DNA from: Gammaproteobacteria bacterium
Lineage (GTDB): Bacteria; Pseudomonadota; Gammaproteobacteria; Thiohalobacterales; Thiohalobacteraceae
Assembly: GCA_019911805.1 (NCBI GenBank)
Contig: JAIOJV010000052.1
Coordinates: 45,413-109,412, forward strand
Length of the DNA stretch: 64,000 nt
Reading direction: 5' to 3'
The notes under the pieces are model-generated. The model was not told where the DNA came from, ran no database searches, and worked only from the letters and a program-made list of their open reading frames with translations. Shown here piece by piece: positions 24,658 through 62,530 of the stretch (its first letter is position 1; every line of letters starts with the position of its first letter). A program made the position numbers and the translations under genes.

Positions 24658-24788
24658 GCCACGGCAACACACGGAAGACGCTGAGATGAAGCAGCGTCGC
24701 AAGGCCCCGACGCAGTGCCTGGTAGGTGGCGAGGGCTGTTGTGTGAAGCATATGAACTTGTCCGTGTATTTCCGTGTGCTTCCGTGGC
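24658..24788. repeat. CACGGAA-heptad inverted-repeat element R1 (REP/MITE-like), between MFP and RND genes
   Basis: Left arm GCCACGGCAACACACGGAAGAC and right arm TCCGTGTATTTCCGTGTGCTTCCGTGGC. The core is shared with R2 and R9. Confidence 0.85.
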
Positions 24789-24807
24789 TGAAGAAAGTTT
24801 TTCAGGA

Positions 24808-26004
24808 TCATTGGTCAACCTCACCGCCAAGGGTGAGGTCGGTGAGTACTCCGGTATCCGGGTCTATCTGTTTCGGTACCGGATTGACGGTCACCCCGGA
24901 GCGGACTTTCTGCAGACCTTCGACAATTACGCGCTCGCCCACCTCCAGGCCGCTCTCGGTGGCCAGCATAGCGCCCTGACGCGAGCCGGTTTTGATGAAC
25001 CGTTGGATGACCTTCTGTTGGTCGTCTACGACGAGGACAAATTTACCTTCGATGGTCTCCTGTACGGCCGCTTGTGGCACCAGGACCTGAGGCTCACCGG
25101 CCCGCCCTTCGATATGCAGTGTGACATACAGCCCGGGCAACAGAACGGCATCCGGATTGGGGAACTCCGCCCGCATGGCGACGGTGCCGGTACTGGCATC
25201 GGTCTGCACATCGGCAAAGTTGGGTATACCGTTCTGGTTGTAATATTTACCGTCCGGCAGCGTCAGGCGAAGCGACAATTTGCTGACGATGCTCGCGCCA
25301 GAGCTGCTGCCTAAGCGGCGGAATGCGACGTAGTCGGACTCATTGAGCTGGAACTCCACATAGATCGGATCCGTTACCAGCACTTCCGCAATCGGTCCGC
25401 TGGCCGGGCCGACGACGGCACCGACATCGTAATTCAGCCTGCCGATCCAGCCGTCAAACGGTGCCTTGATCTCGGCGTATTCCCGATTGGTAGTGGCTTT
25501 CTGCACCGCGGCTTCTGCGCTCTCCAGGCGACCTGCCGCAGCATTGGAGCGATCCCTGAGCGTGTCCATATCCGCCTCGGACAGATACCCCTTGGCAGCG
25601 ACTTCTTCACCTCGGTTGAGGTTTTTCCGGGCGGATTCGGCCTCCGCCCTGGCGGCGGTCAGCTCTGCTTTGGCCTGCTGGAGATCTGCACGGACACGGG
25701 TATCTTCCAGCCTGACCAGAACCTGCCCTTCACGCACCCGGGATCCCTCCCGGAACAGAATCTCTCTGATCTCGGCTTCGATGCGCGGTGTGAGCCAGGC
25801 CCTGGCTGACGCTGCCGTTCTGGCGACAAAGTCGCGGGATGGGCGGACTTCAGAGCTTTCCAGGACCACAACGGAAACCGAGGGCGGTGTGGCCTGGGGC
25901 GGCTCAACAGGCTCTGAACACCCGGCACTGAGGCACAGAACCCCGATCATCACTAGCCGCTGGCGGATTTGTCTGGTCGAAGAATGATACGAGAGGCTGA
26001 ACAT
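24808..26004 (-). CDS. RND efflux periplasmic adaptor (membrane fusion protein)
   Basis: ORF 24808..26199; start ATG 26004 (MFSLSYHSSTRQIRQRLVMIGVLCLSAGC, with a lipobox-like LSAGC). It shows HlyD-type coiled-coil and beta-barrel sequence. Upstream codons translate repeat R2. Confidence 0.85.
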   Translation of the reverse strand: MFSLSYHSSTRQIRQRLVMIGVLCLSAGCSEPVEPPQATPPSVSVVVLESSEVRPSRDFVARTAASARAWLTPRIEAEIREILFREGSRVREGQVLVRLEDTRVRADLQQAKAELTAARAEAESARKNLNRGEEVAAKGYLSEADMDTLRDRSNAAAGRLESAEAAVQKATTNREYAEIKAPFDGWIGRLNYDVGAVVGPASGPIAEVLVTDPIYVEFQLNESDYVAFRRLGSSSGASIVSKLSLRLTLPDGKYYNQNGIPNFADVQTDASTGTVAMRAEFPNPDAVLLPGLYVTLHIEGRAGEPQVLVPQAAVQETIEGKFVLVVDDQQKVIQRFIKTGSRQGAMLATESGLEVGERVIVEGLQKVRSGVTVNPVPKQIDPDTGVLTDLTLGGEVDQ

Positions 26005-26037
26005 AGGTCTTCCCTGAATGATCCAAAAAACCATATT

Positions 26038-26158
26038 TGCCATGGAAGCACATGGAAGACACCGAGATGAAACAGTGTCGTAAGGCTCCGGCTCAGCACC
26101 TGGCGAGTGAGGAGACCGTTGTATGAAGCGTACGATCTTGCCCGTGTGCTTCCGTGGC
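26038..26158. repeat. inverted-repeat element R2 (same subfamily as R1 and R9)
   Basis: GCCATGGAAGCACATGGAAGAC...CCCGTGTGCTTCCGTGGC, with the core GAGATGAAACAGTGTCGTAAGGCTCCGGCTCAGCACCTGGCGAGTGAGG. Confidence 0.85.
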
Positions 26159-26294
26159 TGAAGTGAGTCTTTCAGGTTGATGGGCGGGCCGGATCTCACA
26201 CTGGATGCGTACAGCCTGTGCTCAGATTAACAGGCTGGTGAGAAACGTGCTCGGGGGCACACCGGCGCTTCAGCCCTGTCGGAAGGGCGGGGGA

Positions 26295-27569
26295 CTACGA
26301 ATCCAGGTCGTCGCCGGTGGCCTTATCCGCCGCCGCTGCCGTGGCCGCGATGGCGGCCCATTCGGCCTCTGCCAGCCGCTCCGGGTGCGGCGGTTGCGGG
26401 CCGACATAACGATCGCGGCCGGCCGCGAGCCCGAACAGGGCCTGCGCTATCGCGAGGCCCACCAGCAGCCACAGTGCCGACTCCCAACCGCCGCTGGTAT
26501 CCCGCAGGGCACCGACCAGGATCGGGGCGCTGGCGGCCAGCAGGTAGCCACCGGACTGGGCAAAGCCGGACAGGCTGGCGGCCTGCTGCGGGTCGCGGCT
26601 GCGCAGTACGATCAAGGTCATCGACAGACTGAATGCCGCACCCAATCCGATCCCGATCAAGCTGCTCCACAGCGAGCTCATCACCCCGGGCCAGACGGCC
26701 ATACCGGTAAACCCACTGGCGGTGATCAGCGCCAGGCCCATGGCCAGCAGGCGCTGATCGGCGAGGCGCACGGCCAGTAGCGGCGTGAGCAGGGCAGCCG
26801 GAACCCCGATGACGGTGAGCAGCGCGAGTTGGGCGCCGGCCGCCGCGGGTTTGAGGCCGGCGTCGGTCAGGATGCTCGGCAGCCAGGAGACGATCGCATA
26901 GAAGGCCGACGATTGCAGCCCGATATAGGCGGTGATCTGCCAGGTCAGAGGATCGCGCCAGAGTGCGGACGGTGCTGTGGTAGCGGGCTGCACGGCCTCC
27001 GCCGTGCGCAGGCGCGCCCGCCAGACCAGCGCGGCGACCAGTGCCGGGAGCGCCAGTACCCCCAGCGGCAGACGCCAGCTGGCGCCGGCCTCCACCCAGG
27101 TGGCCGTCAGAACGACCCCCACGCTGGCGCCACCGTTCATGGCGACCAGATAGAGACCGGTCATCAGGCCCACCTGGGTGGCGAAATAGTGCTTCACCAG
27201 TCCGGGCAGCAGGACATTGGCCAGGGCGGTGGCGCCGCCCAACAACAGTGTCCCGGCCAGCAACGCGGGGAGACCGGGCACGACCCGTAGCAGTCCGCCC
27301 AGCCCGATCAGGGCGGCGCAGTAGTACAACACGGTCTTGGTCCCGACGCGGCGGCTCAGCGCCGGCGCCAGCGGGGCGAGTGCACCGAAGCACAGTACGG
27401 GAAGGCCGGTCAGCAGTGCGGCCCCGGCCGCGGAGATCACATACTCCGCGCGGATCTGGTCCATCACCGGTGCCACGGCGACCAGTGTGGAGCGCATGTT
27501 GAATGCCAGCAGCAGCGTGGCGATCGCCAGCCACAGCCGCGGCTGCGACCGCAGCGTCTGCCGCCCCAT
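26295..27569 (-). CDS. MFS transporter, CynX/NimT-like
   Basis: 424-aa 12-TM ORF. The N-terminus LLLAFNMRSTLVAVAPVMDQIR resembles the CynX family. Confidence 0.7.
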   Translation of the reverse strand: MGRQTLRSQPRLWLAIATLLLAFNMRSTLVAVAPVMDQIRAEYVISAAGAALLTGLPVLCFGALAPLAPALSRRVGTKTVLYYCAALIGLGGLLRVVPGLPALLAGTLLLGGATALANVLLPGLVKHYFATQVGLMTGLYLVAMNGGASVGVVLTATWVEAGASWRLPLGVLALPALVAALVWRARLRTAEAVQPATTAPSALWRDPLTWQITAYIGLQSSAFYAIVSWLPSILTDAGLKPAAAGAQLALLTVIGVPAALLTPLLAVRLADQRLLAMGLALITASGFTGMAVWPGVMSSLWSSLIGIGLGAAFSLSMTLIVLRSRDPQQAASLSGFAQSGGYLLAASAPILVGALRDTSGGWESALWLLVGLAIAQALFGLAAGRDRYVGPQPPHPERLAEAEWAAIAATAAAADKATGDDLDS

Positions 27570-27575
27570 GCTGGC

Positions 27576-28412
27576 CTATTCCCGCAGCGCCTTGGCGTGA
27601 TACGCCAGATGGTCGCCGATGAAGCTGGCGATGAAATGATAGCTGTGGTCGTAGCCGTCCTGCATGCGCAGCTTGAGTTCTCCGCTGCGGGCGACGTAGA
27701 CCGCTTGCAGATCCTGCGGGAACAGCTGTCCGGCCAGGAACTCGTCGTCGGTCCCCTGATCGATCAATACGGGCACCGGCTCGTGTCCGGCCAGGATCAG
27801 TTCCGTGGCATCGTAGGCCTTCCACTGCGCCTGATCATCACCCAGATAGGCGCCAAAGCAGCCTTCGCCCCAGGGTGACTTCACCGGATGGCAGATCGGT
27901 GCAAAGGCGGATACCGAGCGATAGGCGTGCTTTTCCTTCAATGCACAGATCAACGCGCCGTGACCGCCCATGGAATGACCACTGATGGACTTGACACCGG
28001 GGAGCACGGGCAGGTTGGCCTCGATCAGGGCCGGGAGTTCCACGGTGACGTAGTCATACATTCGATAATGCGTCGCCCAGGGCGCCTGCGTGGCATTTAC
28101 GTAAAAGCCGGCGCCCTTGCCCAGGTCGTAGCGCTCCGGTACGTCGGGCACGTCATCGCCACGCGGACTGGTGTCCGGAAAGATCAATGCCAACCCGAGT
28201 TCCGCGGCATAGCGCTGCGCGCCGGCCTTGGTGCGGACATTGTCATCGGTGCAGGTCAGCCCCGACAACCAATAGACGGCTGGAACCTTTTCCGTGGCTG
28301 CCTGCGGCGGCAGATACACCGAAAAGGTCATCGTGCAATGGCAGCTCGTGGATTCATGCTGATAACGGTTCAGCCAGCCGCCGGATTCCTTGATGCTTTC
28401 GATCTGTTTCAT
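27576..28412 (-). CDS. fghA: S-formylglutathione hydrolase (esterase D)
   Basis: GGWLNRYQHES...FSVYLPP...VPAVYWLSGLTCTDDN...GHSMGGHGAL, with full-length similarity to FrmB/FghA. Confidence 0.9.
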   Translation of the reverse strand: MKQIESIKESGGWLNRYQHESTSCHCTMTFSVYLPPQAATEKVPAVYWLSGLTCTDDNVRTKAGAQRYAAELGLALIFPDTSPRGDDVPDVPERYDLGKGAGFYVNATQAPWATHYRMYDYVTVELPALIEANLPVLPGVKSISGHSMGGHGALICALKEKHAYRSVSAFAPICHPVKSPWGEGCFGAYLGDDQAQWKAYDATELILAGHEPVPVLIDQGTDDEFLAGQLFPQDLQAVYVARSGELKLRMQDGYDHSYHFIASFIGDHLAYHAKALRE

Positions 28413-28509
28413 GATGCGGTGCCCTGGAGTGAATCGATTGATGGTGAAATCATCGAGAGGATATCAGTAGTATGTCCACTGTTGTCCCGTAAACCCAAAA
28501 ATCCCATTT

Positions 28510-28582
28510 GCCTTGGAAGCACACGCAAGACATTAATGAACCTCTATGATCTCGTCTGTGTTTTTCCCTGTGTTTCCGTGGC
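28510..28582. repeat. short inverted-repeat element R3 between adhC and fghA
   Basis: GCCTTGGAAGCACACGCAAGAC...GTGTTTTTCCCTGTGTTTCCGTGGC, a degenerate minimal form of the family. Confidence 0.7.
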
Positions 28583-28636
28583 TGAAATGCGTGTCTGCAG
28601 GGTGAAAATAATGAGACGCAAGCAAGTGGGGGCGAC

Positions 28637-29746
28637 TCAGAAGATAATCACGCTGCGAATGCTCTCACCGCTGTGCATCAGCTCGAATGCGCGATTGATG
28701 TCCTCCAGCGGCATGGTGTGGGTGACCATCTTGTCCAGCTCGATCTCACCGCTCATGTAGCGGTCTACATATCCTGGCAGCTCCGTGCGGCCCTTGACGC
28801 CACCGAATGCGGAACCCTTCCAGGTGCGGCCCGTGACCAGTTGGAAAGGGCGGGTGCAAACCTCCTGGCCGCTGCCGGCGACGCCGATGACGGTGGATAC
28901 GCCCCAGCCCATATGCGTGCACTCCAGCGCCTCTCGCATCACCTGCACATTCCCGATGCACTCGAAGGAATAATCGACACCGCCGTTGGTCATGTCCACG
29001 ATGGCCTCCTTGACGCTGCCGCTCAGTTCCCTGGGATTGACGAAATCGGTCGCGCCCAGTGCCTTGGCCATGGCCCATTTGCCCGGATTGATATCCACGG
29101 CGATGATACGCCCCGCCTTGGCCATCACCGCCCCCTGGATACAGGACAGGCCGATACCGCCCAGACCGAACACCGCGACGGTGGAGCCGGGTTTCACCTT
29201 GGCCGTATTGAGCACCGCGCCGATGCCGGTGGTGACACCGCAACCGAGCAGACAGACCTTGTCCAACGGGGCCGCCTTGTTGATCTTCGCCAGCGCAATC
29301 TCCGGCACGACGGTGTACTCGGAAAACGTCGAGCAGCCCATGTAGTGATAGATGGGTTTACCGTTCATGGAAAACCGTCGTGTGCCATCGGGCATGTAGC
29401 CGGTCCAGACCGTCGCGGCGATGGATTGGCACAGATTGGTCTCGGTGGAATGGCAGTACACGCATTCGCCGCATTCCGGGATGTACAGGGGGATCACATG
29501 ATCGCCCGGCTGCAGCCCTTTCACGCCGGGGCCACATTCCACCACTTCACAACCACCCTCGTGGCCGAGTACGGCGGGAAACGCGCCCTCGGGGTCGTCA
29601 CCGGACAAGGTGAAGGCATCTGTATGACATACACCCGAGGCGATGACCTTGAGCAGCACCTCGCCGTCCTTCGGGCCTTCCACATCGATCATCTCGATGG
29701 ACAAGGGCTTTTTCGGTTCCCAGGCAACAGCGGCTTTCGATTTCAT
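28637..29746 (-). CDS. adhC: S-(hydroxymethyl)glutathione dehydrogenase / class III alcohol dehydrogenase
   Basis: [18 protein letters not shown]...[26 protein letters not shown]...GLGGIGLS, a canonical class III ADH. Confidence 0.9.
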
Positions 29747-29861
29747 CGGCGGGGTCCTTGTGAGTACAGCTTCGAACGGTGTGGTGCCGCAGCATCTGCG
29801 TACGTGATGGGGGGGTGAGCATTTTCCTGTGGAATCTTACCCCATAGGCGATGCGAGCGGA

Positions 29862-30131
29862 TCACGTCAGCAGCGTACCACGCTGTTCGAGTGCCGCTTC
29901 GAGCCTGGCCCTTTGTTGTGCGAAAGTACCATAGAAGAAGGCATCACCGATCACCGTGATGGGCGCGACCCGCACGCCATAACGGGACTTGGCCTCGTCC
30001 GCGACGCCCGGGTCGGTCACATCACGTTCCTCGTAGGCGATCTGCCGCTGCTGCAGCCACTGCTTGAGTGCCGCGCAATCGGGGCAGCCGGGCGCCGTGT
30101 AGAGGAGCACGGGTGGGGGTTTTACGTCCAT
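29862..30131 (-). CDS. glutaredoxin-family (NrdH-like) small redox protein
   Basis: 89 aa with a CPDC active-site motif in LLYTAPGCPDCAALKQWL and a thioredoxin-fold length. Confidence 0.6.
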   Translation of the reverse strand: MDVKPPPVLLYTAPGCPDCAALKQWLQQRQIAYEERDVTDPGVADEAKSRYGVRVAPITVIGDAFFYGTFAQQRARLEAALEQRGTLLT

Positions 30132-30173
30132 GTCGGGTGCCCCGGCGCATCGGGGTGATCGCCTTGACCGCGA

Positions 30174-30374
30174 TCACTGCACACTCGCGTCATACCCTTC
30201 TCCCTTGACTGCCGTCACCAGTGCCTGCGGATCGGCACTCCCCGTCACCACGGCCTGCGGTGGGTCGAGGCTGACGTCGGCCTGTTCCACACCCGGGACC
30301 TGCTGCAAGGCCTTATTCACGGCGGCTACACAATGGCCGCAGGTCATACCGGAGATCTTGAGGATCGTTTGCAT
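30174..30374 (-). CDS. copZ: heavy-metal-associated copper chaperone
   Basis: 66 aa with the GMTCGHC metal-binding motif. Confidence 0.85.
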   Translation of the reverse strand: MQTILKISGMTCGHCVAAVNKALQQVPGVEQADVSLDPPQAVVTGSADPQALVTAVKGEGYDASVQ

Positions 30375-30412
30375 CGCTGTCGCTCCTTTGTCTTTACTGC
30401 CATGTCGGTTCG

Positions 30413-32953
30413 TTACCGCGTGCCGTGGGCCGTGCGCACTTCGCTGGCCTGCTGGCCGCTGTGCAGGGGGGTGCCGTCGGAGGGTGTTTGCGTGCCGTAG
30501 GCGACCGCCCGCAGGCGCCTGAGGCGCAGACTGTTGCTGAGCACGAAGACACTGGACAGGCCCATCGCCACGCCGGCCACCATGGGATTCAAATGCCAGC
30601 CGGTCCAGGGATAGAACATACCGGTGGCCAATGGAATCAATAGAATATTATAGAAGAACGCCCAGAACAGATTGCCGCGGATCGTGCTCATGGTGCGCTG
30701 CGCGACCTGCAATGCGGTCACCACACCGGACAGATCACCGCGCGTCAACGTGACGTCCGCTGCCTCGATGGCGATATCGGTGCCGGAGCCGACGGCGATG
30801 CCGACTTCGGCCTGCGCCAGGGCTGGCGCATCGTTGATGCCGTCACCCACGAAGGCGACCTTGCGCCCTTGCTGCTGCAGCGCGATCACTGCGGTGGCCT
30901 TGCCTTCGGGCAGGACCTCCGCCTGCACCGTCTCGATCCCGGCGAGGGCGGCAATCGCGGCGGCTGTGCGACGATTGTCACCAGTGATCATGCCCACGTG
31001 CAGATTCCGCTGCTTGAGTGCAGCGATCACCGCTGCTGCTTCGCGTTTCAGGGGATCTGCCACGGCGAGTATGGCACGCAGCTGACCGTCCACCGCCAGA
31101 TACATGGGCGTCTTACCCTGATCGGATAGCGCGGTGACCCGCTCTGACACCGACTGCAGAGAAATGCCTTCACGGGTCATGAAGCGATCGGCGCCAAGCT
31201 GTACCTGGTGGCCATCCACACGGGCCTGGACACCGTAACCCGGTACGGCACTGAATTCAGTCACCGGCCACGATGGCACACCCTCCGTTTTGGCTGCCTG
31301 CACGATGGCGCGGGCGATCGGGTGCTCACTGCCCACTTCCACCGCCGCCGCAAACGCCAGTGCGGTGGCGCGGTCACCGTCCAGCGCCTCGAGATCGGTC
31401 AGGCGGGGACGGCCTTCGGTGAGGGTGCCGGTCTTGTCGAATACGACAGTATCCACGTGGGAGAGCGTCTCCAACGCCTCGCCCTTGCGATACAGCACGC
31501 CCAATTCGGCGGCCCGACCGCTGCCGACCATGATCGCCGCCGGTGTGGCCAGACCCATCGCGCAGGGGCAGGCCACGATCAGTACCGCCACGGCACTGAC
31601 CAGGGCCAGCGTGATCGCCGGCTCCGGACCGAATGACAGCCAGGCAAAGAAACTGATGAGGGCGATGACAATCACGATCGGCGTGAACACGTTCACCACC
31701 CGGTCGGCCAGGCCCTGGATCGGCAGTTTGGAGCCCTGGGCACGTTCGACCAGGCGAATGATCTGCGCCAGCACGGTCTGTGTGCCCACCTGAGTCGCCT
31801 TGATCTGCAATAGCCCGTGCTGATTCACCGTGCCACCGACCGCCTTGTCACCGACCCGCTTGAGAATCGGCACCGGCTCGCCCGTGAGCATGGATTCGTC
31901 GACATAGCTCTCGCCCTCGGTCACCTCGCCGTCGACCGGCAGACGCTCACCCGGGCGGACCACCACGACATCGCCCTGACGCACCTGTGCGATCGCCACC
32001 TCCTGCTCCTGACCTTCACGCAGTATCCGGGCGGTCTTGGCCTGCAGGCCGATCAGCTTTTTGATCGCTGCGGACGTGCGTCCCTTCGCCGTCTCCTCCA
32101 GGAATTTGCCGAACAGAATGACGGTGACGATGACCGCGGCCGACTCGAAATAGAGATGGCGGGCCTCCGTCGGAAACAGGCCGGGCCACAGCAGCACCAG
32201 CATGCTGAATAACCACGCGGCACCGGTGCCGGTCATGACCAGGCTGTTCATGTCGGGTGAGAGATGCCGGTAGGCGATCCAGCCCGGACGGAAAAACCGC
32301 CGCCCCGGCCCGAACAGCACTATGGTGGTCAGGATCGCCTGCACCCAGTCCCAGACCGCGATCGGTGCGAGTGCGCGCAGGCCCTGGTCGATCGCCGGGA
32401 TGAGCATTCCACCCATCGAGATCAGCATGACCGGTGCAGTCAGCGCGGTGGCCAGTCCGACATCACGCCGCATCGCCTGCCGTGTCGCGGCGCGCACCTC
32501 GGCCTCGCGTTCCTCCCCGGACCCATCCGGGCCGGCATCCAGCCGGTAGGTGGCATAGCCGGTCTCTTCGATGGCGGCGATCACTTCATCGGGACTCACG
32601 CTGGCGGGCAGATAGCGTACCGTCGCCCGTTCCGTGGTCAGATTGACACCGGCCTCGAGCACACCCGGCAACTTGTTGAGTGCCCGCTCCACGCGTGCCG
32701 TGCAGGAGGCGCAGGTCATGCCTTCGACCCCGACCTCGTATTCCGCCACGATCGGCGTGTACCCGGCGTCAGTCACGGCCTGCACGATGCGCCCCGGCTC
32801 CTGCACGGCCGGGTCGTAACTGATACTGGCGCGCTCGGTGGCAAGATTGACGCTCGCCTCAGTCACGCCGGGCAGCTTTGACAGGGCCCGCTCGACGCGC
32901 GCCGTACAGGAGGCGCAGGTCATCCCTTCAACACCCAACTGCAGTTGCTTCAT
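30413..32953 (-). CDS. copA: Cu(I)-translocating P1B-type ATPase
   Basis: Two N-terminal GMTCASC HMA domains; CPC in TM6 ([11 protein letters not shown]); DKTGTLT; GDGINDAP; YN...P and MGLSS motifs typical of the Cu(I) subgroup. Confidence 0.9.
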
Positions 32954-33007
32954 AACTGAGACCTCTTATGTGAATTCGGTCGGAACAGGGTGCTTCAAGG
33001 CCTGCAT

Positions 33008-33415
33008 TCAGGCCGCGTTGTCTGCCAGCGCCGCGAGAATCGGACACTCTTCGGTTGAACCGTGGCCGGAACAACGCCGGTCGAGCTTCGACAACCCACG
33101 TTTCATACGCTGCAGGTCACGGATACGCACATCGATATCGGCAATCTTGCTTTGGGTCAGCCGCTTCACCTCGGCCGCCGATTTGCCCGGGTCATCACTG
33201 AGCGACAGCAGTTCGGCGATCTCATCGAGTGAGAAACCCAGGGCCTGTGCGCGCCGGATGAAGCGCAGGCGCCGTACCGCATCTGCACGGAACAAACGGT
33301 AGCCGGATGCCGTACGCTCGGCTTCGGGCAACAACCCGCGCCGTTCGTAATAACGCAAGGTCTCCACCGCCACACCGGTTTGTCTGGCCAACTTGCCCAC
33401 GGTCAAGGTCTGCAT
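33008..33415 (-). CDS. cueR: MerR-family Cu(I)-responsive regulator (CueR/HmrR-like)
   Basis: The N-terminal HTH is VGKLARQTGVAVETLRYYERRGLL. The segment DPGKSAAEVKR has Ser where divalent-metal sensors have Cys, and the C-terminal loop is CSGHGSTEECP. I prefer ATG 33415 over GTG 33421. Confidence 0.75.
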   Translation of the reverse strand: MQTLTVGKLARQTGVAVETLRYYERRGLLPEAERTASGYRLFRADAVRRLRFIRRAQALGFSLDEIAELLSLSDDPGKSAAEVKRLTQSKIADIDVRIRDLQRMKRGLSKLDRRCSGHGSTEECPILAALADNAA

Positions 33416-33440
33416 GGTCACCCCTCATCGCGATGCAGGC

Positions 33441-33472
33441 ATTCTAAACCCTGTAGCCTACTATAGAGTCAA
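33441..33472 (-). promoter_or_regulatory. MerR-type long-spacer promoter with dyad operator upstream of cueR-copA-copZ
   Basis: The minus strand reads TTGACT-ctatagtaggctacagggtt-TAGAAT (19-20-nt spacer). The spacer holds the dyad ACTCTATAG-N4-CTACAGGGT, about 25 nt upstream of the cueR start. Confidence 0.55.
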
Positions 33473-33668
33473 GAGCTGTTCCTTGCACCCCGAGGGTATC
33501 CCAACCGTAAAATCCCACATTGGCTGCGCGGGTCAGGCCTGCCGTCCGGTCACCGACCTGCACCATGCGTGACTGCAGAGAGGAAAGCCAGCCACGGAAG
33601 CAGGCTCATTGCATAAAGCCCCAGGATCAACCCGCGGGTAATGGTCCCGGGTGTATACAATGAATTCT

Positions 33669-33697
33669 TTCCGTGTCGTTCCGTGGGTTCCGTGGCC
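33669..33697. repeat. solo right-arm copy of the heptad repeat (R4a)
   Basis: TTCCGTGTCGTTCCGTGGGTTCCGTGGCC with no matching left arm nearby. Confidence 0.6.
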
Positions 33698-33776
33698 AGA
33701 AATGGTTTAAGAAAATTCTGACGAGGCTGAAGCGATCGGCCCGAAGGCGGGGGAGGGGATAGATCTGACCCAGGAA

Positions 33777-33874
33777 CCACGAAGGACACGAAGGACACGA
33801 AGAAGAATCTGGCCAGTGTAAAATCAGCCAACATACACTTGGTGTTGCCTTCGTGTCCTTCGTGTCCTTCGTGG
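33777..33874. repeat. variant hairpin element R4b: perfect 26-bp inverted repeat with altered heptad (CACGAAGGA)
   Basis: CCACGAAGGACACGAAGGACACGAAG (33777-33802) and CTTCGTGTCCTTCGTGTCCTTCGTGG (33849-33874) are exact reverse complements separated by 46 nt. Confidence 0.85.
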
Positions 33875-33915
33875 TAAAAGTTTTAGCAAGCTGGGACGGG
33901 CCTGCGGATTCCCAT

Positions 33916-34299: not shown

Positions 34300-34389
34300 G
34301 TATCCTCCTCGTCTTGATCTGACTATTGCAGAGTACGGACAGCCGGAATGTGATCGTGTTCAACCTTGCGCGGGCTCTTGCCGTGTTCC

Positions 34390-40569: not shown

Positions 40570-40598
40570 TTCCGTGTTGTTCCGTGGATTCCCTGGCC
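40570..40598. repeat. solo right-arm copy of the heptad repeat (R5)
   Basis: TTCCGTGTTGTTCCGTGGATTCCCTGGCC. Confidence 0.6.
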
Positions 40599-41596: not shown

Positions 41597-42109
41597 CTAG
41601 TGACGTCTCTTTTTCCCAGCGACCCCGACCAGCCCCAACAGGCCGGAGCCCAGGAGCCAGACAGCCGCCGGTACCGGTATCGGGCTCACTTGGGTCGTCG
41701 CATCAACGGCCACGTCAGTTCCCGCCACGCCGAAGCTGAAAGCGGTGCGTACCGTGTACGTCGTATTGTTCACCAAGTCTGCTGAAAAGGAGACACTTGA
41801 CTGTCCGCCGCCGCTCAGGCCGGAGGCGATCGGGGAGCCAGCCGGGGATGAAACCCCCGCATACAACTCGATAGAGAAGGCACCCGCCTGAAAGATCCCG
41901 GTGCCCGATGGCACCAGACTGAAGCTGATGATCGCGTCGGCGGTATCCGCGACAGCGAAGAACGTGTAATAGTCATCGTAGCTGCCCGGCGTAAGCCCTA
42001 CCCGTGTGTCGGAAACGGGTGGTGGGAAGTTACCGAGACTCCCCAGCGATGCGGCATGGATGGACAGTGGGGCGAGTGAGCACACAACCGCGCAGATGTA
42101 TTTCCTCAT
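41597..42109 (-). CDS. PEP-CTERM sorting-domain secreted protein
   Basis: ATG 42109 gives MRKYICAVVCSLAPLSIHAA (signal peptide). The C-terminus VPVPAAVWLLGSGLLGLVGVAGKKRRH is a PEP-CTERM anchor. Confidence 0.7.
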   Translation of the reverse strand: MRKYICAVVCSLAPLSIHAASLGSLGNFPPPVSDTRVGLTPGSYDDYYTFFAVADTADAIISFSLVPSGTGIFQAGAFSIELYAGVSSPAGSPIASGLSGGGQSSVSFSADLVNNTTYTVRTAFSFGVAGTDVAVDATTQVSPIPVPAAVWLLGSGLLGLVGVAGKKRRH

Positions 42110-42525
42110 AGCCACCTTCCCCTCCAGAATAATTTTTTGGAATATGTTCGACTTGCCGACTGGTTGCCGGTCAGACGGTATAACGTCCCGCGCATACACA
42201 GCAAGTATTGTTCCGTTTCAGCCCAGGCGAGCGATAACATCTTGTTATCAGATGAATTTGATCCCTTTATCTGTCAGGCTCGGGGCGCGCTGACGGTTAT
42301 TCTATTAAGGTGATCTGTAAATGTTCTCGACAGGCCGATCGCCGATAGACCATTCTATCTCCTTGTTATCTCGAATGAATTCGCATGAGTATACGGTTTG
42401 GGTCGGTGGTAGGTATCCCGACAGTCTCCCGGCCATAGCGGACAGTGCAGTTTGGATGAAGACGCGCAAACGCCCTGCCTTCTAATTGAAGGACGGATTT
42501 TTGTGTGACAACAGCGCGCCGTGAT

Positions 42526-45242: not shown

Positions 45243-45440
45243 ATGCCGAAGTTGAAAACCAACCGCGGCGCAGCCAAGCGTTTCCAGCGCACGGCGAGCG
45301 GCGGCTTCAAGCGCGCGCAGTCCCATCTGCGGCACATCCTCACCAAGAAGAGCAGCAAACGGAAACGTCAGCTGGGCAGCCCCGCCCAGGTGCACGAGTC
45401 CGATGTGGCGGCTGTCCGCCGCATGCTGCCGTACAGCTGA
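45243..45440 (+). CDS. rpmI: 50S ribosomal protein L35
   Basis: [36 protein letters not shown]; start at ATG 45243 inside ORF 45207..45440. Confidence 0.9.
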
Positions 45441-45887: not shown

Positions 45888-47172
<1,285 letters not shown>

Positions 47173-47191: not shown

Positions 47192-47220
47192 GCCACGGAA
47201 ACACCTGGAAGACTCTGATG
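47192..47220. repeat. truncated left-arm fragment (R7a)
   Basis: GCCACGGAAACACCTGGAAGACTCTGATG matches the left arm and core start of R1, R2 and R9. Confidence 0.6.
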
Positions 47221-47234
47221 GGGAATTTATTTTA

Positions 47235-47316
47235 GCCACGGAAGCACACGGAAATACACGGAAGCCGGGGATGCAGCGGGTTTTACATTCCGTGTATTTC
47301 CGTGTGTTTCCATGGC
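47235..47316. repeat. minimal hairpin element R7b between pheS and pheT
   Basis: GCCACGGAAGCACACGGAAATACACGGAAGCC-ggggatgcagcgggttttac-ATTCCGTGTATTTCCGTGTGTTTCCATGGC. Confidence 0.85.
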
Positions 47317-47344
47317 CAATCTTTTTATGACTTGCATCTGACTT

Positions 47345-49720: not shown

Positions 49721-49725
49721 ACCAT

Positions 49726-50362: not shown

Positions 50363-50449
50363 CCCACCGGTCGTTTCCACTGCGTCGGGATTCGGTTATG
50401 ATGGCGCCCCGCCCGCAAAGGGCGGTCAAAGCTTGATCACTGTATTTTT

Positions 50450-50646
<197 letters not shown>

Positions 50647-50660
50647 CCCCTCACCCTCGC

Positions 50661-50790
50661 GCCCCGACCAACTCCAAAAGCCGTTCTCACGAACGGCTTT
50701 TTTCGTTGCCCGGCGCGTTCGGATTCCCGGCCCTTCGGCATAGCCTCAGGGCGTTCGGGTCGCGCGAAGCGGTGCTTCGCGAAAGGCACG
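50661..50790 (+). repeat. tandem direct repeat, copy 2 (orphan tRNA 3' end plus second terminator hairpin)
   Basis: Identical to copy 1 except 2 mismatches (CCCAGTGCG vs CCCGGCGCG). The period is 144 nt. Confidence 0.9.
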
Positions 50791-53195: not shown

Positions 53196-53222
53196 TATGC
53201 CGCCCGGCATGGCAGAAGCCCG

Positions 53223-54764: not shown

Positions 54765-54813
54765 ATCCGGGTAGGTACACAGGGATAACGCTGACAGGGG
54801 AGGCCGAAGGATA

Positions 54814-56709: not shown

Positions 56710-57034
56710 CCGGACATAACGGATGGCATCACGTACAAGAAGGTTGCACCCCGCGATCATTCAGGAGTCGGCGTCCTGGCCAATAACCTGATCCGGAAGT
56801 GGTGATCGGACACCCGCCTTCACGGGAAAGAGATGACCGAGTAGATCATTTGGCGTGTCGACTTCTATAATGTGCGCTTGTCACCCATGCTGCCGCGGTA
56901 TTGGTCCGAAGGGCTTCGGCAATCGTCAAGTTTCACCGAAGCTTGCCGCTGCTCCGGTTTCCAGACGTCGCGACAGCACCGCCGGCATGCAACATCGCCC
57001 GGATTGTATAAACGGATCAGGAAAGTCTGTGGAC

Positions 57035-57745
57035 ATGAATGTTGCTTCTCGGATGATCGCCTTGGGTCTGTTGGCTACACTGTCCGGCTGCGCCAACCGA
57101 CCGCCGTACGAAGACATCAGCGATCCGCTCGAACCCGTCAACCGGGCCGTCGATACCTTCAACGACAAGTTCGATCGCGCGCTGTTGAAGCCGACGGCCC
57201 AGGTCTACGAAAAGGCGGTGCCGCCGCTGGCGCGCAGCAGTGTGACCAACTTCTTCAGTAACCTCCGCGAGCCCATCGTGATCGTGAACAACCTGCTGCA
57301 GGGCAAGCCGCGGCAGGGGGTGGCGGATACGGGACGGTTGCTGGTAAACACGACTCTCGGTGTGTTCGGGCTGTTCGATCCGGCGACGCAGATGGGGCTG
57401 GAGAAGCACCATGAGGATTTTGGCCAGACCCTCGGGCGCTGGGGGGTGGGTGAAGGCTGGTATCTGGTGCTGCCCATCCTCGGACCGAGCACCGTGCGCG
57501 ACGGTGTCGGTATGGTGGTCGATTATCAGATCGATCCGCTGGCGCAGCACGATGAGGTGCGTGAGCGCAACTCCCTGGCCGCGTTGAGCGTGGTCGATAC
57601 CCGTGCGCGCCTGCTGAGCGCCACCAGGCTCCGTGACACGGCGGCCCTGGACCCCTACCTGTTCACCCGCGAGGCCTACCGGCAACACCGCTGGGACCGC
57701 ATCTACGACGGCCACCCACCGCCGCCCAGCTTCGACTACGAGTAA
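57035..57745 (+). CDS. mlaA: MlaA/VacJ-family outer-membrane lipoprotein
   Basis: ATG 57035 gives MNVASRMIALGLLATLSGC (lipobox). DPLEPVNRAVDTFNDKFDRALLKP...FFSNLREP match the VacJ family. Confidence 0.8.
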   Translation: MNVASRMIALGLLATLSGCANRPPYEDISDPLEPVNRAVDTFNDKFDRALLKPTAQVYEKAVPPLARSSVTNFFSNLREPIVIVNNLLQGKPRQGVADTGRLLVNTTLGVFGLFDPATQMGLEKHHEDFGQTLGRWGVGEGWYLVLPILGPSTVRDGVGMVVDYQIDPLAQHDEVRERNSLAALSVVDTRARLLSATRLRDTAALDPYLFTREAYRQHRWDRIYDGHPPPPSFDYE

Positions 57746-57929
57746 TCCCGCTACGGTACGCGCTTGAGTCCCCGGTCTGACCGGGGCGGGCCGCGGCCTG
57801 CCTCGAGCGGGGCGGCGGTTTGGACGAGGCACTGACACTGCCGCCCATTTTTGGGATAATCCGTCTTTCCGCGTGCTTCAGCGCCTGGCCCCAGAAGCGG
57901 GGCGACACCCCGGTAAGAACCTGCACTCC

Positions 57930-59012
57930 ATGACGAATCAATACGCTACCGACGACCTCCGCATCCTCAGCATCAAGGAGGTCACCTCGCCGGCAGAGCT
58001 GCACCAGGCATTGCCGGTCACCGAGGCCGCCGCTCGCACCACGGTGGCGACGCGCCACGCCATCCACGACGTCCTGACCGGCCACGACGATCGCCTGCTG
58101 GTGATCATCGGCCCCTGTTCCATCCATGACCCGGCAGCGGCACTGGAGTATGCACGCCGCCTGCGGGCGCTGCGCGAGCGCCTGGGCGAGGACCTGTTGA
58201 TCGTCATGCGCGTCTATTTCGAGAAGCCGCGCACCACCGTCGGCTGGAAGGGGTTGATCAACGACCCGAAGCTGGATGGCAGTTTCCGTATCAATGAAGG
58301 TCTGCGCATCGCCCGCAAGCTGCTGCTCGACCTGAACGAACTGGGTGTGCCGGCAGCGACCGAGTTCCTTGACCTGGTCAGCCCGCAGTATGTCGCCGAC
58401 CTGGTGAGCTGGGGTGCTATCGGCGCGCGCACCACCGAGAGCCAGGTGCACCGTGAACTCGCCTCCGGGCTGTCCTGTCCGGTGGGCTTCAAGAACAGCA
58501 CCGACGGTACATTCAAGGTCGCCATCGACGCGATCCGCTCCGCCTCCCACCCGCACCACTTCCTGTCGCTGACCAAGGACGGCCGGTCGGCGATCTTCTC
58601 GACCGCCGGTAACGAGGATTGTCATATCATCCTGCGTGGCGGCAAGCAGCCGAATTACGACACCGCCAGCGTGGCCCGGGCGATCGCGGACCTGCAGACC
58701 GCCGGTCTGCAGCTGCGCCTGATGGTCGACTTCAGCCATGCCAACAGCCTCAAGGATCATCAGCGCCAGATCGAGGTCGGCCGCGACGTGGCCGCGCAGA
58801 TCGCTGCCGGCAACCGTGCCCTGATCGGGGCGATGATCGAGAGTCACTTGCAGGCCGGTCGCCAGGACGTCATACCGCAGCAGGCACTGACCTACGGCCA
58901 GAGTATCACCGACGCTTGCCTCGGCTGGGATGACAGCGTCACCGTGCTGGAAATGCTGGCGGAGGCCGTACGCACGCGGCGCGGCGTACCGGACAGCAAG
59001 GTCGCGTCCTGA
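57930..59012 (+). CDS. 3-deoxy-7-phosphoheptulonate (DAHP) synthase, class I (AroF/G/H type)
   Basis: ATG 57930 (MTNQYATDDLRI). LLVIIGPCSIHD...MRVYFEKPRTTVGWKGLINDP...GARTTESQVHRELASGLS.PVGFKN. I cannot tell the isozyme. Confidence 0.9.
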   Translation: MTNQYATDDLRILSIKEVTSPAELHQALPVTEAAARTTVATRHAIHDVLTGHDDRLLVIIGPCSIHDPAAALEYARRLRALRERLGEDLLIVMRVYFEKPRTTVGWKGLINDPKLDGSFRINEGLRIARKLLLDLNELGVPAATEFLDLVSPQYVADLVSWGAIGARTTESQVHRELASGLSCPVGFKNSTDGTFKVAIDAIRSASHPHHFLSLTKDGRSAIFSTAGNEDCHIILRGGKQPNYDTASVARAIADLQTAGLQLRLMVDFSHANSLKDHQRQIEVGRDVAAQIAAGNRALIGAMIESHLQAGRQDVIPQQALTYGQSITDACLGWDDSVTVLEMLAEAVRTRRGVPDSKVAS

Positions 59013-59381
59013 TCGCCCCGATCACGAACTGGCGCCGTGGCGCAGGGTAGTGGATTGCCTCTTAGGTTTTAGACTGTAGATACTGTCTCCACGTCAAGCT
59101 CCACAATGCGGGGATGGGTCGGTGTGCGGGGTGACGGAACCGGCCTTGGTGCAGGCCTGCCGACCGGGCCACACCCTTCCGCCTCCGGCTGTCGCAAGTC
59201 GGCTTCACGGCGTGGCCCGGTCGGCAGCCGGATGCCGTGGGTTTACCCCCTGACAGATTCGCCTCCGGCATGGGGCTCAGGGCCCAGCACCACCGGGGCA
59301 TCCCTGCAACTACAACTGCGCCAGCCCATGCGTTCTTGAGGTACAATCTGCGGCTTTATCACACCGGGCAGTACTGAGCAT

Positions 59382-60480
59382 ATGTTGGAAATCAATCCCG
59401 TCCTCCACACCATCGAAGACCTCAAAGGCCGCGCCGAGAGCCTGAGGGGGTATCTTTGACTACGAAGGCAAGCGCGAACACCTGGAAGAGGTAAAGCGCG
59501 AGCTGGAACAGCCCAACGTCTGGGATGATCCCGAGCGCGCCCAGGGACTCGGGCGCGAGCGTGCGCGCCTGGAAGAGATCGTCCTGACCCTGGGCGACAT
59601 GAACGATAACCTCGAGGATGCCGCGGAGCTGGTGGAGATGGCCGGCGCGGAGGACGACGAGTCGACGCTGGAATCCGTGCGTGTCGATCTCGCCGCCCTG
59701 GAGAAGCAGATTGCCGCACTCGAATTCCGCCGCATGTTCTCCGGTGAGATGGATCCCAATAACGCCTTCGTCGACATCCAGGCCGGTTCCGGCGGCACCG
59801 AGGCGCAGGACTGGGCGGAGATGCTGCTGCGCATGTACCTGCGCTGGGCCGAACGCCACGGCTTCAAGACCGAGATCATCGAGGCCTCTGCGGGTGAGGT
59901 CGCCGGCATCAAGAGCGCCACCGTGAAAATCGATGGTGCCTACGCCTTCGGTTGGCTGCGCACCGAGACCGGCGTACACCGGCTGGTGCGCAAGTCGCCG
60001 TTCGATTCCGGCCACCGCCGCCACACTTCGTTCACCTCCGTGTTCGTCTCACCGGAAGTCGATGACAGTTTCGAAGTGGAGATCAATCCGGCGGATCTCA
60101 AGGTCGACACCTACCGCGCCAGTGGCGCCGGTGGTCAGCACGTCAACCGTACCGAGTCGGCAATCCGCATCACGCACGTCCCCAGCGGCATCGTGGTGGC
60201 CTGCCAGAGCGACCGGTCGCAACACAAGAACCGCTCCACCGCCATGAAGCAACTGGCGGCGAAACTCTACGAAATGGAGATGCAGAAGCGCCGCGCCGAT
60301 CAGCAGATCGTGGAGGAAAACAAATCCGACATCGGCTGGGGCAGGCAGATCCGCTCCTACGTGCTCGATCAGTCGCGGATCAAGGATCTGCGCACCGGCG
60401 TGGAGGTCGGCAACACCCAGGCCGTGCTCGACGGCGACCTGGACGACTTCATCGAGGCCAGTCTGAAGAGTGGACTTTGA
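59382..60480 (+). CDS. prfB: peptide chain release factor 2, requires programmed +1 frameshift: join(59382..59456,59458..60480)
   Basis: Frame 0 reads [25 protein letters not shown] then TGA (59457-59459). The +1 frame continues [29 protein letters not shown]... into tracked ORF 59599..60480, which contains SPF and GGQ ([11 protein letters not shown]). Total length is 365 aa, as in RF2. Confidence 0.9.
59444..59460 (+). promoter_or_regulatory. prfB: prfB +1 frameshift cassette
   Basis: GAGGGGG-TAT-CTT-TGA-C: a Shine-Dalgarno-like GGGGG sits 3 nt before the slippery CUU, followed by UGA-C. This matches my memory of the E. coli cassette AGGGGGUAUCUUUGAC. Confidence 0.9.
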
Positions 60481-60705
60481 GAGTGAGGCGTGAGGAGTGA
60501 GGCGAAAAGATATTGGCCACGGAAGCACACGGAAATACACGGAAATATCTATAAGGCTAGGGGCTCGCACGCTTGCAACGTTTGCACCACTGCCCAAGCC
60601 GGCTCCAGGGGCTACGGTCGTCCACGCTATGATTTTGGAATAATTTTTCCGTGTTGTTCCGTGTGCTTCCGTGGCCAATAAAGGTTTTACTCCTCACTCC
60701 TCACC
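60481..60705. repeat. composite element R8 filling the prfB-lysS spacer (inverted copy of R6)
   Basis: It starts at the first base after the prfB stop and ends 10 nt before the lysS ATG: GAGTGAGGCGTGAGGAGTGAGGCG...GGCCACGGAAGCACACGGAAATACACGGAAAT...core...TTTTTCCGTGTTGTTCCGTGTGCTTCCGTGGCC...CTCCTCACTCCTCACC. Confidence 0.85.
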
Positions 60706-60715
60706 AGAGAAAACC

Positions 60716-62218
60716 ATGAACGACAGTGAAGACAAGCAACAGGACGAGCATCGGCTGATCGCTGAGCGCCGCGAGAAGCTCCGGCTGCTGCGTGCCGCGG
60801 GCATCGCCTTTCCGAACGATTTCCGCCGTGACGCCCTGGCCGGCGAGCTGCATGCCGAGTATGGCGACCAGTCCACCGAGTCCTTGGACGCCGGGGCGCG
60901 CCGCGTACGCGTGGCCGGGCGCATGATGGCCAAGCGCATCATGGGCAAGGTCAGCTTCACGCACATCCAGGATATGTCCGGGCGTATCCAGCTGTTCCTG
61001 GGCCGCGACAGCCTGCCGGATGGTGTTTATCAGCAGTTCAAGGGCTGGGATATCGGCGATATCGTTGGCGCCGAGGGTGTGTTGTTCAAGACCCGCACCG
61101 GCGAACTCAGCGTCAAGGTGGAGCAGATCCGCCTGCTGACCAAATCACTGCGGCCGCTGCCGGAGAAATTCCATGGCCTGGCGGATCAGGAGACGCGCTA
61201 TCGGCAGCGTTATCTCGATCTCATCATGAACGAGGCCTCGCGCAGCATCTTCCGGCTGCGCACCCGGATCATCCAGTACATCCGTACGTTCCTCGACGAA
61301 CGTGGCTTTCTGGAGGTCGAGACGCCGATGATGCAGCCGATCCCCGGCGGCGCCACGGCGCGGCCATTCATCACCCATCACAATGCCTTGGACATGCAAC
61401 TCTTTCTGCGCATCGCGCCGGAGCTGTATCTCAAGCGCCTGGTGGTCGGGGGCTTCGAGAAGGTCTACGAAATCAACCGCAGCTTCCGCAACGAAGGTCT
61501 GTCGACGCGCCACAACCCCGAGTTCACCATGCTGGAGTTCTATCAGGCCTATGCGGACTACCATGACCTGATGGACCTCACCGAAACCCTGCTGCGCAGC
61601 ATGGCACAGGCGCTGTTGGGCACCACGACCATCGCCTATCAGGGCGAGGACTACGATCTCGGCCGGCCGTTCGCGCGTATGACGATCAAGGAATCCATCC
61701 TGCATTTCAATCCGGACATCGTCGCCGCCGAGCTCGACGACCTCGAGGCCGCACGACGCATCGCCGTACACGCAGGCGTCGTGCTCAAGCCAGGCTATGG
61801 TCTGGGCAAGCTGCAGGTCGAGATCTTCGAGAAGACGGTCGAGCACCGCCTGGCGCAGCCGACCTTCATCACCGCCTATCCGACCGAGGTCTCACCGCTG
61901 GCCCGCCGCAACGACCACGACCCGTTCGTCACCGATCGGTTCGAGTTCTTCGTCGGCGGCCGTGAGATCGCCAACGGCTTCTCCGAACTGAACGACGCCG
62001 AGGACCAGGCCGAGCGCTTCCGCCGCCAGGTGGAGGACAAGGAGGCCGGCGACGAAGAGGCCATGCACTTCGACGCCGATTACATCTGCGCCCTGGAGCA
62101 CGGTATGCCGCCGACCGCGGGCGAGGGCATCGGCATCGACCGCCTGGTCATGCTGTTCACCGACGCGCCGTCGATCCGCGACGTGTTACTGTTCCCGCAT
62201 CTGCGGCCACTGGCATGA
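60716..62218 (+). CDS. lysS: lysine--tRNA ligase (class II)
   Basis: ATG 60716 ([22 protein letters not shown]). [37 protein letters not shown] and GIGIDRLVM motifs. Confidence 0.95.
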
Positions 62219-62397
62219 TATATTAATCTTTATTATCATGTATTTATTTAGTATATCGGTGGTAGTATCTATATTCAGTCGGGAATATGACACGGTGTAA
62301 CGAGCGGGTAAATGTATTCAGGAATGCATTTAGGTAAGATTCAGGAGTTTTCACTGCCGTCCCAATTGCCTTTACCCTAAAAATAAAACGCATTTCA

Positions 62398-62530
62398 GCC
62401 ACGGAAGCACACGGAAAAACACCGCAATGAAATCGCATCACGAAGCCCTGCCGCAACACCTGGCGGGTGACGTGAGCTGTTGTGTAGAGCCATATGATCT
62501 TGCCCGTGTTTTTCCGTGTGCTTCCGTGGC
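62398..62530. repeat. inverted-repeat element R9 (same subfamily as R1 and R2)
   Basis: GCCACGGAAGCACACGGAAAAACACC...CCCGTGTTTTTCCGTGTGCTTCCGTGGC, flanked by TTCA/TGAA. Confidence 0.85.

Follow-up and report, generated by a model that had tools for sequence, protein, structure and literature searches.

The window, by which we mean the whole 64,000-nucleotide stretch analyzed here (positions 45,413 to 109,412 of contig JAIOJV010000052.1, from a gammaproteobacterium of the Thiohalobacteraceae), carries a dispersed family of hairpins built from the heptad CACGGAA, which we relate below to cassettes that enclose a gene for a GxxExxY protein. The CACGGAA hairpins are a real, very abundant, and strictly intergenic family. 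Their arms consist of two or three CACGGAA words at 10-bp spacing, inverted around variable cores. The sequence CACGGAANNNCACGGAA, allowing at most one mismatch, matched 20 times in the window against 0.03 matches expected from shuffles, and the heptad itself was counted 19 times on one strand and 23 times on the other, compared with approximately 4 expected per strand. A first-pass annotation had described at least 11 dispersed, non-autonomous, intergenic copies with terminal inverted arms, and the description was borne out by this enrichment, by repeat finding that recovered the families and inverted pairs, and by folding; all 11 copies were found at their coordinates when the sequences were read. 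A relaxed scan of the window (9- to 11-bp phase, up to three mismatches) yielded no further convincing copy, making 11 the complete catalogue. Hairpin folding of the two-armed copies gave z-scores of -2.6 to -11 relative to shuffled controls; the energies were weakest for the eroded copy at 28510 (-26.6 kcal/mol, z -3.6) and strongest for the composite at 60481 (-119 kcal/mol, z -10.9). The copies, for which a strand is given only where one was assigned, are as follows.

24642..24806: copy of a subfamily with a core of about 127 nucleotides (nt), arms at 24658-24686 and 24760-24788, fold -59.4 kcal/mol, z -2.55; it occupies the whole spacer between two minus-strand genes, MFP (stop 24808) and RND (start about 24641).
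26021..26176: a further, degenerate member of this subfamily with CATGGAA units, fold z -5.26; it lies downstream of an MFS gene (stop 26295) and precedes the MFP start by about 17 nt.
28510..28582: short eroded hairpin between two minus-strand genes, one adhC-like (stop 28637) and one for an fghA-like esterase (start 28412); z -3.64.
33669..33697, minus strand: solo arm of three TTCCGTG units at 10- and 9-bp phase, with no partner arm.
33777..33874: hairpin of a sister family, arms of three CACGAAGGA units at 9-bp phase; fold -61.1 kcal/mol, z -11.
40570..40598, minus strand: solo three-unit arm in the divergent spacer between a histidine-kinase gene and a peroxiredoxin gene.
45888..46136: composite copy between rplT (with a terminator-like hairpin) and pheS, fold -115.8 kcal/mol, z -6.1; its parts are a shell (GTGAGGC)2 at 45888-45901, an inner CACGGAA element at 45912-46073, (GGGTTT)4 at about 46082-46105, and a shell (GCCTCAC-type)4 at 46107-46136.
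47192..47220, plus strand: solo, partly eroded left arm within a segment of about 43 nt that is absent from the orthologous spacer of a relative, L049.
47235..47316: minimal hairpin of 78 to 82 nt with three units per arm, between pheS and pheT; fold -53.2 kcal/mol, z -10.4.
60481..60705: second composite, filling the prfB/lysS spacer, with the same shell as the copy at 45888; fold -119.2 kcal/mol, z -10.9; its inner element (60516-60675) shares 92% identity with 45912-46073, though in the opposite orientation with respect to the shell.
62380..62548: of the copies with the 127-nt core, the best preserved; it lies between lysS and a gene for a GGDEF-EAL protein and folds at -84.4 kcal/mol, z -10.6.

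All 11 copies are confined to 24.6 to 62.5 kb. Positions 1-24600, which include a high-GC operon for giant proteins, are without any CACGGAA arm. Of nine element loci, eight are flanked by co-directional genes, and the ninth is in a divergent spacer. The gene contexts named at first reading were confirmed by Pfam (RND/MFP, of the AcrB and HlyD types; Zn-ADH/esterase; prfB/lysS) or by the gene table (rplT/pheS and pheS/pheT). Likewise correct was the remark that the elements create false N-terminal extensions of open reading frames (ORFs): the ORFs at 21543-24830, 24808-26199, 46069-47172, and 60671-62218 begin inside elements, and the recurring peptides ATEAHGNTR and YFRVLPWLK are translations of arms. 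No transposase stands beside the copies in the window, as had been stated.

The number of copies in the genome appears to far exceed those in the window. Summed arm depth was 165 to 250 times the single-copy depth of flanking genes in four DNA metagenome runs, and 255 to 320 times when arms were matched at 80% likeness. Since arm depth is this far above single-copy depth while the listed junction contigs in DNA runs stand at about the organism's own single-copy depth, the data point to a genomic total on the order of 100 or more elements, a depth-based estimate and not a count. The organism is an uncultured gammaproteobacterium. Several ENA and JGI metagenomes contain near-identical contigs, and the window sequence turned up in metagenomes from biofilm, wastewater, landfill, sludge, and soil; among named records the closest is a metagenome-assembled genome (MAG) labeled "uncultured Gammaproteobacteria," approximately 89 to 90% identical over thrS-pheT. 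In a species-representative genome collection, the exact arm 19-mer was found at at least 120 loci, with about nine chance matches expected by our own estimate. At least one paired element is present at 91 of the 120 listed loci, and these loci together with the window hold 284 arms and 109 pairs, the pairs mostly spanning 48 to 190 nt. Carriers include MAGs of the Thiohalobacterales, Ectothiorhodospiraceae, Chromatiaceae, and Burkholderiales and isolates of Vogesella, Chromobacterium, and Thiohalobacter, together with a few bins labeled with other phyla (labels as given in the records only). The same arms are found in many Gamma- and Betaproteobacteria. Their cores are very diverse; the 127-nt subfamily, with three copies in the window, also occurs in Thiohalobacterales MAGs. 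At the Rfam gathering threshold no element family was matched, the sole match in the window being one tRNA, and at permissive E-values the elements drew only generic matches to long-hairpin miRNA precursors, far below threshold.

An information profile of 214 element ends from 107 elements showed what is conserved in the arms. Each heptad position is 96 to 100% conserved, the spacers between heptads are poorly conserved, a near-invariant GC stands immediately outside the first heptad, and a weak A-run (left) and T-run (right) lie 11 to 16 nt outside. The number of heptads per arm ranged from 2 to 8 in the loci examined. In the lineage of the window, the positions given at first reading were right, but the true inverted repeat runs on for approximately 15 to 20 nt beyond the ends given there, with the A-run on the left and the T-run on the right. 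In the best-preserved copy (62380..62548) it includes an outer AAAACGCATTTCAGC and GCTGAAATGAGTTTT, and 62385-62422 and 62506-62543 are 97% complementary. Between the two arms of one element, spacer positions match no better than shuffles (0.41 versus 0.34 at position 7), and RNAalifold supports the arms only, with a covariation term of -0.7. These data show that the arms are conserved as words and not as base pairs, and the lack of covariation between inter-heptad spacers speaks against selection on RNA structure as the main constraint. A role as an RNA regulator is further argued against because gene-less copies have no orientation bias relative to transcription (approximately 8 sense versus 6 antisense relative to neighboring genes in the 127-nt subfamily). 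Two candidate features of the 127-nt core were also rejected: a small ORF (MKQxRKAPAQHLAGEE…), whose frame and ATG are lost in Thiohalobacterales members, and a conserved RNA structure, which had no supported covariation.

The arm structure bears directly on the earlier suggestion that these are repetitive extragenic palindromic (REP) or REPIN elements mobilized by RAYT, an IS200/IS605-like Y1 transposase. A REP unit is an imperfect palindrome of 20 to 40 nt with a conserved GTAG or GTRG at its 5' end, and RAYT corresponds to PF01797. In favor of such a system are the abundance of the present elements, their location between genes and in operon spacers, and the folding of their inverted doublets as hairpins, but the arm consensus (GCCACGGAAGCACACGGAAaaACACGGAA) is a direct heptad array without an internal palindrome and with neither GTAG nor GTRG at the arm ends. 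Moreover, no Y1-type ORF was seen near or between the approximately 280 arms, and no other transposase recurs beside them (825 kb, 120 listed loci). The suggestion was not supported, and we regard mobilization by RAYT as very improbable.

Several copies bear traces of nesting and of rearrangement at the DNA level. In each composite, a second hairpin shell of (GTGAGGN)n/(NCCTCAC)n arrays surrounds a CACGGAA element, and the window has these arrays nowhere else. Because the shells are in direct orientation to each other but the inner elements, arms included, are inverted (168 nt, 92% identity), the inner unit has either flipped or been inserted independently in both orientations. The (GGGTTT)n tract of the rplT/pheS composite differs by one unit between strains (L122, and also a contig of RNA-labeled run X26). 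Outside the window, the same gene-less hairpin lies upstream of a GxxExxY cassette in one genome (L041, 289-399) and downstream in a related one (L206, 2034-2142), within the same histidine-kinase/response-regulator spacer. The inversion of the composite inner unit and the swapped order of hairpin and cassette together show that units rearrange at the DNA level, and such rearrangements distinguish related genomes. The flanks of the elements share only the GC dinucleotide (85 of 107 elements), which is palindromic and may be part of the inverted repeat, and no clear target-site duplication was found around the 107 elements. Insertion at palindrome centers, sought as copy-specific extension of the repeat into the flanks, gave only a marginal signal (0.38 versus 0.34 in an ungapped test) and was set aside.

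Other hairpins of the window are multi-copy as well. Arms of the CACGAAGGA type match four times in the window against 0.06 expected, and the sister family represented at 33777-33874 stands at about 10 times single-copy depth in DNA runs, with many joints to other loops. The core type of the minimal pheS/pheT hairpin (…GGGGATGCAGCGGGTTTTACA…) is itself multi-copy, other copies being seen as joints in DNA runs.

With regard to age, the insertions around pheS fall between two bounds. In 80 pheS loci from relatives at 63 to 76% amino-acid identity, the spacers on either side of pheS are without arms, and the pheS/pheT spacer has a median of approximately 25 to 30 nt in these relatives versus 172 nt in the window; the insertions are late and not ancient parts of the pheST operon. 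Nor are they recent: L049, a relative approximately 90% identical, is occupied at both rplT/pheS and pheS/pheT, and no empty site was found in the strains and metagenomes examined. The minimal pheS/pheT hairpin (47235..47316) is kept at the same site in L049, the window having an extra half-arm segment of 43 nt there, and the rplT/pheS core is replaced and longer in L049, with another palindrome nested inside. That palindrome, at 4560-4640 of L049 (GATTTATTCGTCATTGCGAGCGAAGCG… plus an inverted partner within the CACGGAA core), is unrelated to the heptad elements and represents a further family of small palindromic inserts, the second in this lineage.

The claim that copies are transcribed within operons received partial support. 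RNA-labeled contigs tile the rplT/pheS spacer, and others join pheS to the element that follows it and that element to pheT; in metatranscriptome X25 the depth of the rplT/pheS core (9) is similar to that of the flanking genes (13 to 16). This supports co-transcription through the two pheS spacers at the level of contigs, for which DNA carry-over is possible. A further view is that the elements are selected by the host, whether as mobile bidirectional terminators, as stabilizers or processing sites of mRNA, or as arrays of sites for nucleoid or regulatory proteins, and persist through their effect on operon expression and not as selfish DNA. The strong stem flanked by an A-run and a T-run suits such a role, as do the retention of the rplT/pheS and pheS/pheT copies in the ~90%-identical relative, the unchanged element sites among the strains examined, the RNA-labeled contigs across both pheS spacers, and the 10-bp phasing, which would favor cooperative protein binding. 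We nonetheless consider a host function quite unlikely as the general explanation, although individual copies may be exapted: the elements are absent from the same spacers in the 80 more distant relatives and are not biased in orientation relative to transcription, their cores are highly variable, solo and eroded arms occur, the neighboring genes are functionally unrelated, and the same arms carry a selfish-looking gene elsewhere.

That gene emerged from a search for ORFs between arm pairs. Two of the three largest elements enclose a GxxExxY ORF, and this was the only ORF found between arms. In L059 (Chromobacterium aquaticum) it encodes 123 amino acids (aa) matching PF13366 (PDDEXK_3, E 4e-40) and TIGR04256 ("GxxExxY protein," E 1e-40), in L041 (a betaproteobacterial MAG) the homologue is 59% identical to the L059 protein, and in both the ORF takes up nearly all of the interval between the arms. 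As a reverse test, homologues were fetched through the protein alone and not through the arms, and their flanks were then read. This gave 10 independent gene neighborhoods, with heptad arrays on both sides of the GxxExxY gene in 10 of 10 and inverted arrays in 9 of 10. The neighbors on either side are listed here.

L041 and L206: histidine kinase and response regulator.
L059: hexapeptide transferase and GFO-type oxidoreductase.
L205: accB and accC (Thiohalobacter thiocyanaticus).
L207: unnamed gene and FAD oxidoreductase.
L208-214: pyridine-nucleotide oxidoreductase and AAA_14.
L215: uvrB and marR.
L216-221: lplA-type gene and radical SAM gene.
L222-225: gatB and radC.
L226: parB and repB.
L227-228: epimerase and epimerase.

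The arm words of these cassettes are CACGGAA at 10-bp phase, CACGGAA at 9-bp phase (L205), CACAGAC/CACGGAC (Desulfobacterales type), and CACGAAA (L222). The arms of the window match the CACGGAA arms of L041, L059, L205, L206, L207, and L227, and the variant arms of the sister-family hairpin at 33777 resemble the CACGAAA arms that bracket the gene in L222. The cassette of T. thiocyanaticus (L205, positions 1430-1900, QZMU01000001.1) lies between accB and accC in sense orientation. In all 10 contexts the GxxExxY gene is co-oriented with both neighbors, for which the chance would be approximately 0.001 if orientation were random, and this constant orientation suggests that the gene is expressed by host read-through. 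Literature searches turned up neither an account of these elements or of the cassette nor a paper that ties GxxExxY (PF13366, TIGR04256) to repeats.

The GxxExxY protein has about 120 aa, and in an alignment E15, the GxxExxY motif, D65, E75-x-K77, and Q89 are invariant or nearly so. Its AlphaFold model (predicted local distance difference test score of 96) best matches the Cas4 protein SSO0001 in the PDB (E 1e-4, template modeling [TM] score of 0.6 over the query, 22% identity), followed by alkaline and lambda exonucleases and MGME1 and, more weakly, by tRNA-splicing endonucleases and the Hjc resolvase. On the strength of the model, the protein is assigned a Cas4-like PD-(D/E)XK fold with intact catalytic residues. 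Compared with the Cas4/RecB-family enzymes of this fold (SSO0001, PDB 4ic1), it keeps the catalytic D...ExK core but represents only a minimal core, about 120 aa versus about 200 aa, and has no CRISPR context; the match is modest, and nuclease activity of GxxExxY proteins is predicted only. The family had been listed with unknown function in a survey of PD-(D/E)XK proteins (PMC3424549). It comprises 27,136 clusters at 50% identity with E ≤1e-3 and 10,098 with E ≤1e-10, and the protein had no sequence match in the PDB, among the phage families of PHROGs, or among the defense models of PADLOC. Many representatives (P0235, P0238, P0241, and others) have 250 to 290 aa and two matched stretches, which might reflect tandem fusion or the calling of two neighboring genes as a single one.

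Taken together, we consider it probable that the elements of the window belong, as gene-less and non-autonomous members, to a class of compact hairpin cassettes. It is to a similar degree probable that the full cassette of this class consists of phased-heptad arrays, one gene of about 120 aa for a GxxExxY PD-(D/E)XK protein, and the same arrays inverted. The gene-less copies look like hitchhikers of a selfish cassette, and gene-less units far outnumber gene-bearing ones, by approximately 100 to 2 among the paired units of the 120 listed loci. In X1, the best DNA run for this organism, a gene body resembling that of L041 did not appear at 80% nucleotide identity or above; a 39-nt piece of the conserved motif turned up in three other runs. 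Derivation of the cores from the GxxExxY gene by internal deletion was considered and rejected, the similarity not exceeding that of shuffled controls.

The main competitor is that these are classical miniature inverted-repeat transposable elements (MITEs), whose arms would be the terminal repeats of an insertion sequence with a DDE-type or other transposase elsewhere and in which GxxExxY would be a passenger. The first-pass annotation had called the family MITE-like, and this holds insofar as the elements are small, non-coding, and multi-copy, with terminal inverted repeats and many unrelated cores that share only the arms. The lack of relationship between cores and the interior of the GxxExxY gene also fits a MITE, and two unrelated ORF families within heptad-stem hairpins (S23p in the intervening sequences [IVSs] of rRNA and GxxExxY here) fit a vehicle with cargo. 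The likeness fails where a transposase is concerned, since no transposase-like family recurs next to or between the arms (825 kb, 120 listed loci) and the same ends enclose only GxxExxY, which as the sole enclosed ORF fits snugly in 10 contexts and always has one orientation relative to host genes. Nor was a clear target-site duplication found, and a 169-nt element had no match in 72,556 plasmid records. A search for a recurrent neighboring protein family gave only generic ones (TctC, ABC transporter, histidine kinase, GGDEF, and PCMT). Overall, we judge the classical MITE explanation unlikely.

Several observations nonetheless weigh against the cassette interpretation. There is no GxxExxY gene in the window or in approximately 150 kb from its closest relatives, and the gene-less cores have no detectable similarity to the ORF-bearing interiors. 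Because only the arms link the two kinds of unit, the nuclease gene could be one of several cargoes and not the driver. In one cassette (L226) the arrays are direct and not inverted, and, to our knowledge, a Cas4-like mini-nuclease is not a known transposase. In addition, no empty site was found in strains at least 99% identical or in eight DNA metagenomes, and the flanking GC dinucleotide, being palindromic, is uninformative on target-site duplication. Finally, flanks resembling those of Rho-independent terminators leave room for a host function, and the RNA evidence consists of assembled contigs.

If the window elements do belong to the GxxExxY cassette class, the following mechanism can be envisaged. 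The phased heptads would serve as protein-recognition words presented on one face of the DNA helix, once per turn, to an oligomeric protein; the enclosed GxxExxY nuclease would be the obvious candidate, and a host factor another. Through such recognition the units would spread or persist at the DNA level, possibly by nuclease-stimulated copying into new sites or by arm-to-arm recombination, and gene-less copies would be carried in trans by the GxxExxY protein, as MITEs are by theirs. Copies in spacers may be tolerated in transcripts because RNase III would cut or remove the perfect stem of about 30 bp, by analogy with the IVSs of 23S rRNA, and host read-through transcription would express the promoterless nuclease gene of full cassettes. 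A broader proposal, which we put forward tentatively and think somewhat more apt to fail than to hold, is that a very widespread class of heptad-array hairpins, which would include rRNA IVSs, has GxxExxY mini-nucleases as its enzymes of mobility or maintenance. The enzyme would read phased heptads, either as duplex DNA or as an extruded cruciform, and drive the copying of both kinds of unit, the full cassette and the gene-less hairpin, into spacers that are transcribed and in which RNase III would render them harmless; the organism of the window would then represent a runaway gene-less amplification.

Were this proposal true, GxxExxY/PF13366, a family that is named but functionally blank across its 27,136 clusters, would gain a testable role, and the origin and mobility of rRNA IVSs would be tied to a general class that also colonizes ordinary operons. 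Essential operon transcripts (pheST, prfB-lysS, and those of efflux pumps) would carry perfect RNA duplexes of 30 bp, which would likely change mRNA processing and stability. Annotation would benefit as well, given that such hairpins falsely lengthen ORFs at the N terminus, interrupt assemblies, and take up operon spacers. Bench work is possible in culturable carriers, namely Chromobacterium aquaticum, Vogesella species, and Thiohalobacter thiocyanaticus.

Three further features of the window were recorded in passing. A segment of approximately 884 bp (41626-42509), upstream of thrS and holding a 200-aa ORF without a Pfam match, is absent in a metagenomic strain that is 99.4% identical elsewhere (L124); this presence/absence polymorphism adjoins a duplicated segment resembling the thrS leader. 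A 144-bp tandem duplication (50511-50790, 98% identical) directly follows tRNA-Pro (50450-50523) and is unrelated to the CACGGAA family. A P-type ATPase gene has in its 5' part a 112-nt direct repeat (32625-32940) whose copies are 76% identical and 204 bp apart, in keeping with the two HMA domains detected by Pfam.

Among described systems, REP elements, bacterial interspersed mosaic elements (BIMEs), and REPINs with their RAYTs are likewise abundant extragenic units, often inverted doublets, with a small dedicated gene flanked by repeats. Unlike them, the present units lack GTAG, have direct heptad arrays in place of palindromes, and are associated with a PD-(D/E)XK gene and not with an HUH/Y1 enzyme. 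MITEs such as the Correia elements of Neisseria are similar in being small, non-coding, and multi-copy with terminal inverted repeats, in occupying intergenic and operon-internal spacers, in being transcribed as long hairpins, and in having subfamilies that share only their ends. They differ in that the partner gene here encodes a nuclease-fold protein of about 120 aa and no cognate transposase is known, in that the arms are phased heptad arrays, and in that no sequence or Rfam similarity links the elements to described families.

The IVSs of 23S rRNA in Coxiella burnetii and Leptospira (PMC4990558) offer a nearer parallel. The Coxiella IVS has a 28-bp terminal stem with two or three tandem GACAGAT heptamers, whose number varies between strains, and an ORF in its loop, and its excision by RNase III is proven (PMC4990558). 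The resemblance extends to the compact unit bounded by terminal inverted repeats, the IVS stem of about 28 bp, the tandem and numerically variable heptamers of the Coxiella stem, the single small ORF lying in the loop in sense to the host transcript, and the existence of gene-less forms; such IVSs are regarded as selfish elements of unknown mobility that RNase III excises from the RNA. In contrast, the elements described here lie between protein-coding genes and not in helices 25 or 45 of 23S rRNA, no rRNA signature was present in any fetched locus (the only RNA gene of the window being one tRNA), the ORF encodes a GxxExxY PD-(D/E)XK protein and not the four-helix-bundle S23p, copies number approximately 100 or more and are mostly gene-less, and the RNase III step is drawn by analogy only. 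By this comparison of architectures, the closest published counterpart is the ORF-bearing IVS of 23S rRNA, and not a REP element or a classical DDE-type MITE. To that picture the window adds strong gene-less amplification, nested arm types, inversion of an inner unit, and contig-level RNA evidence.

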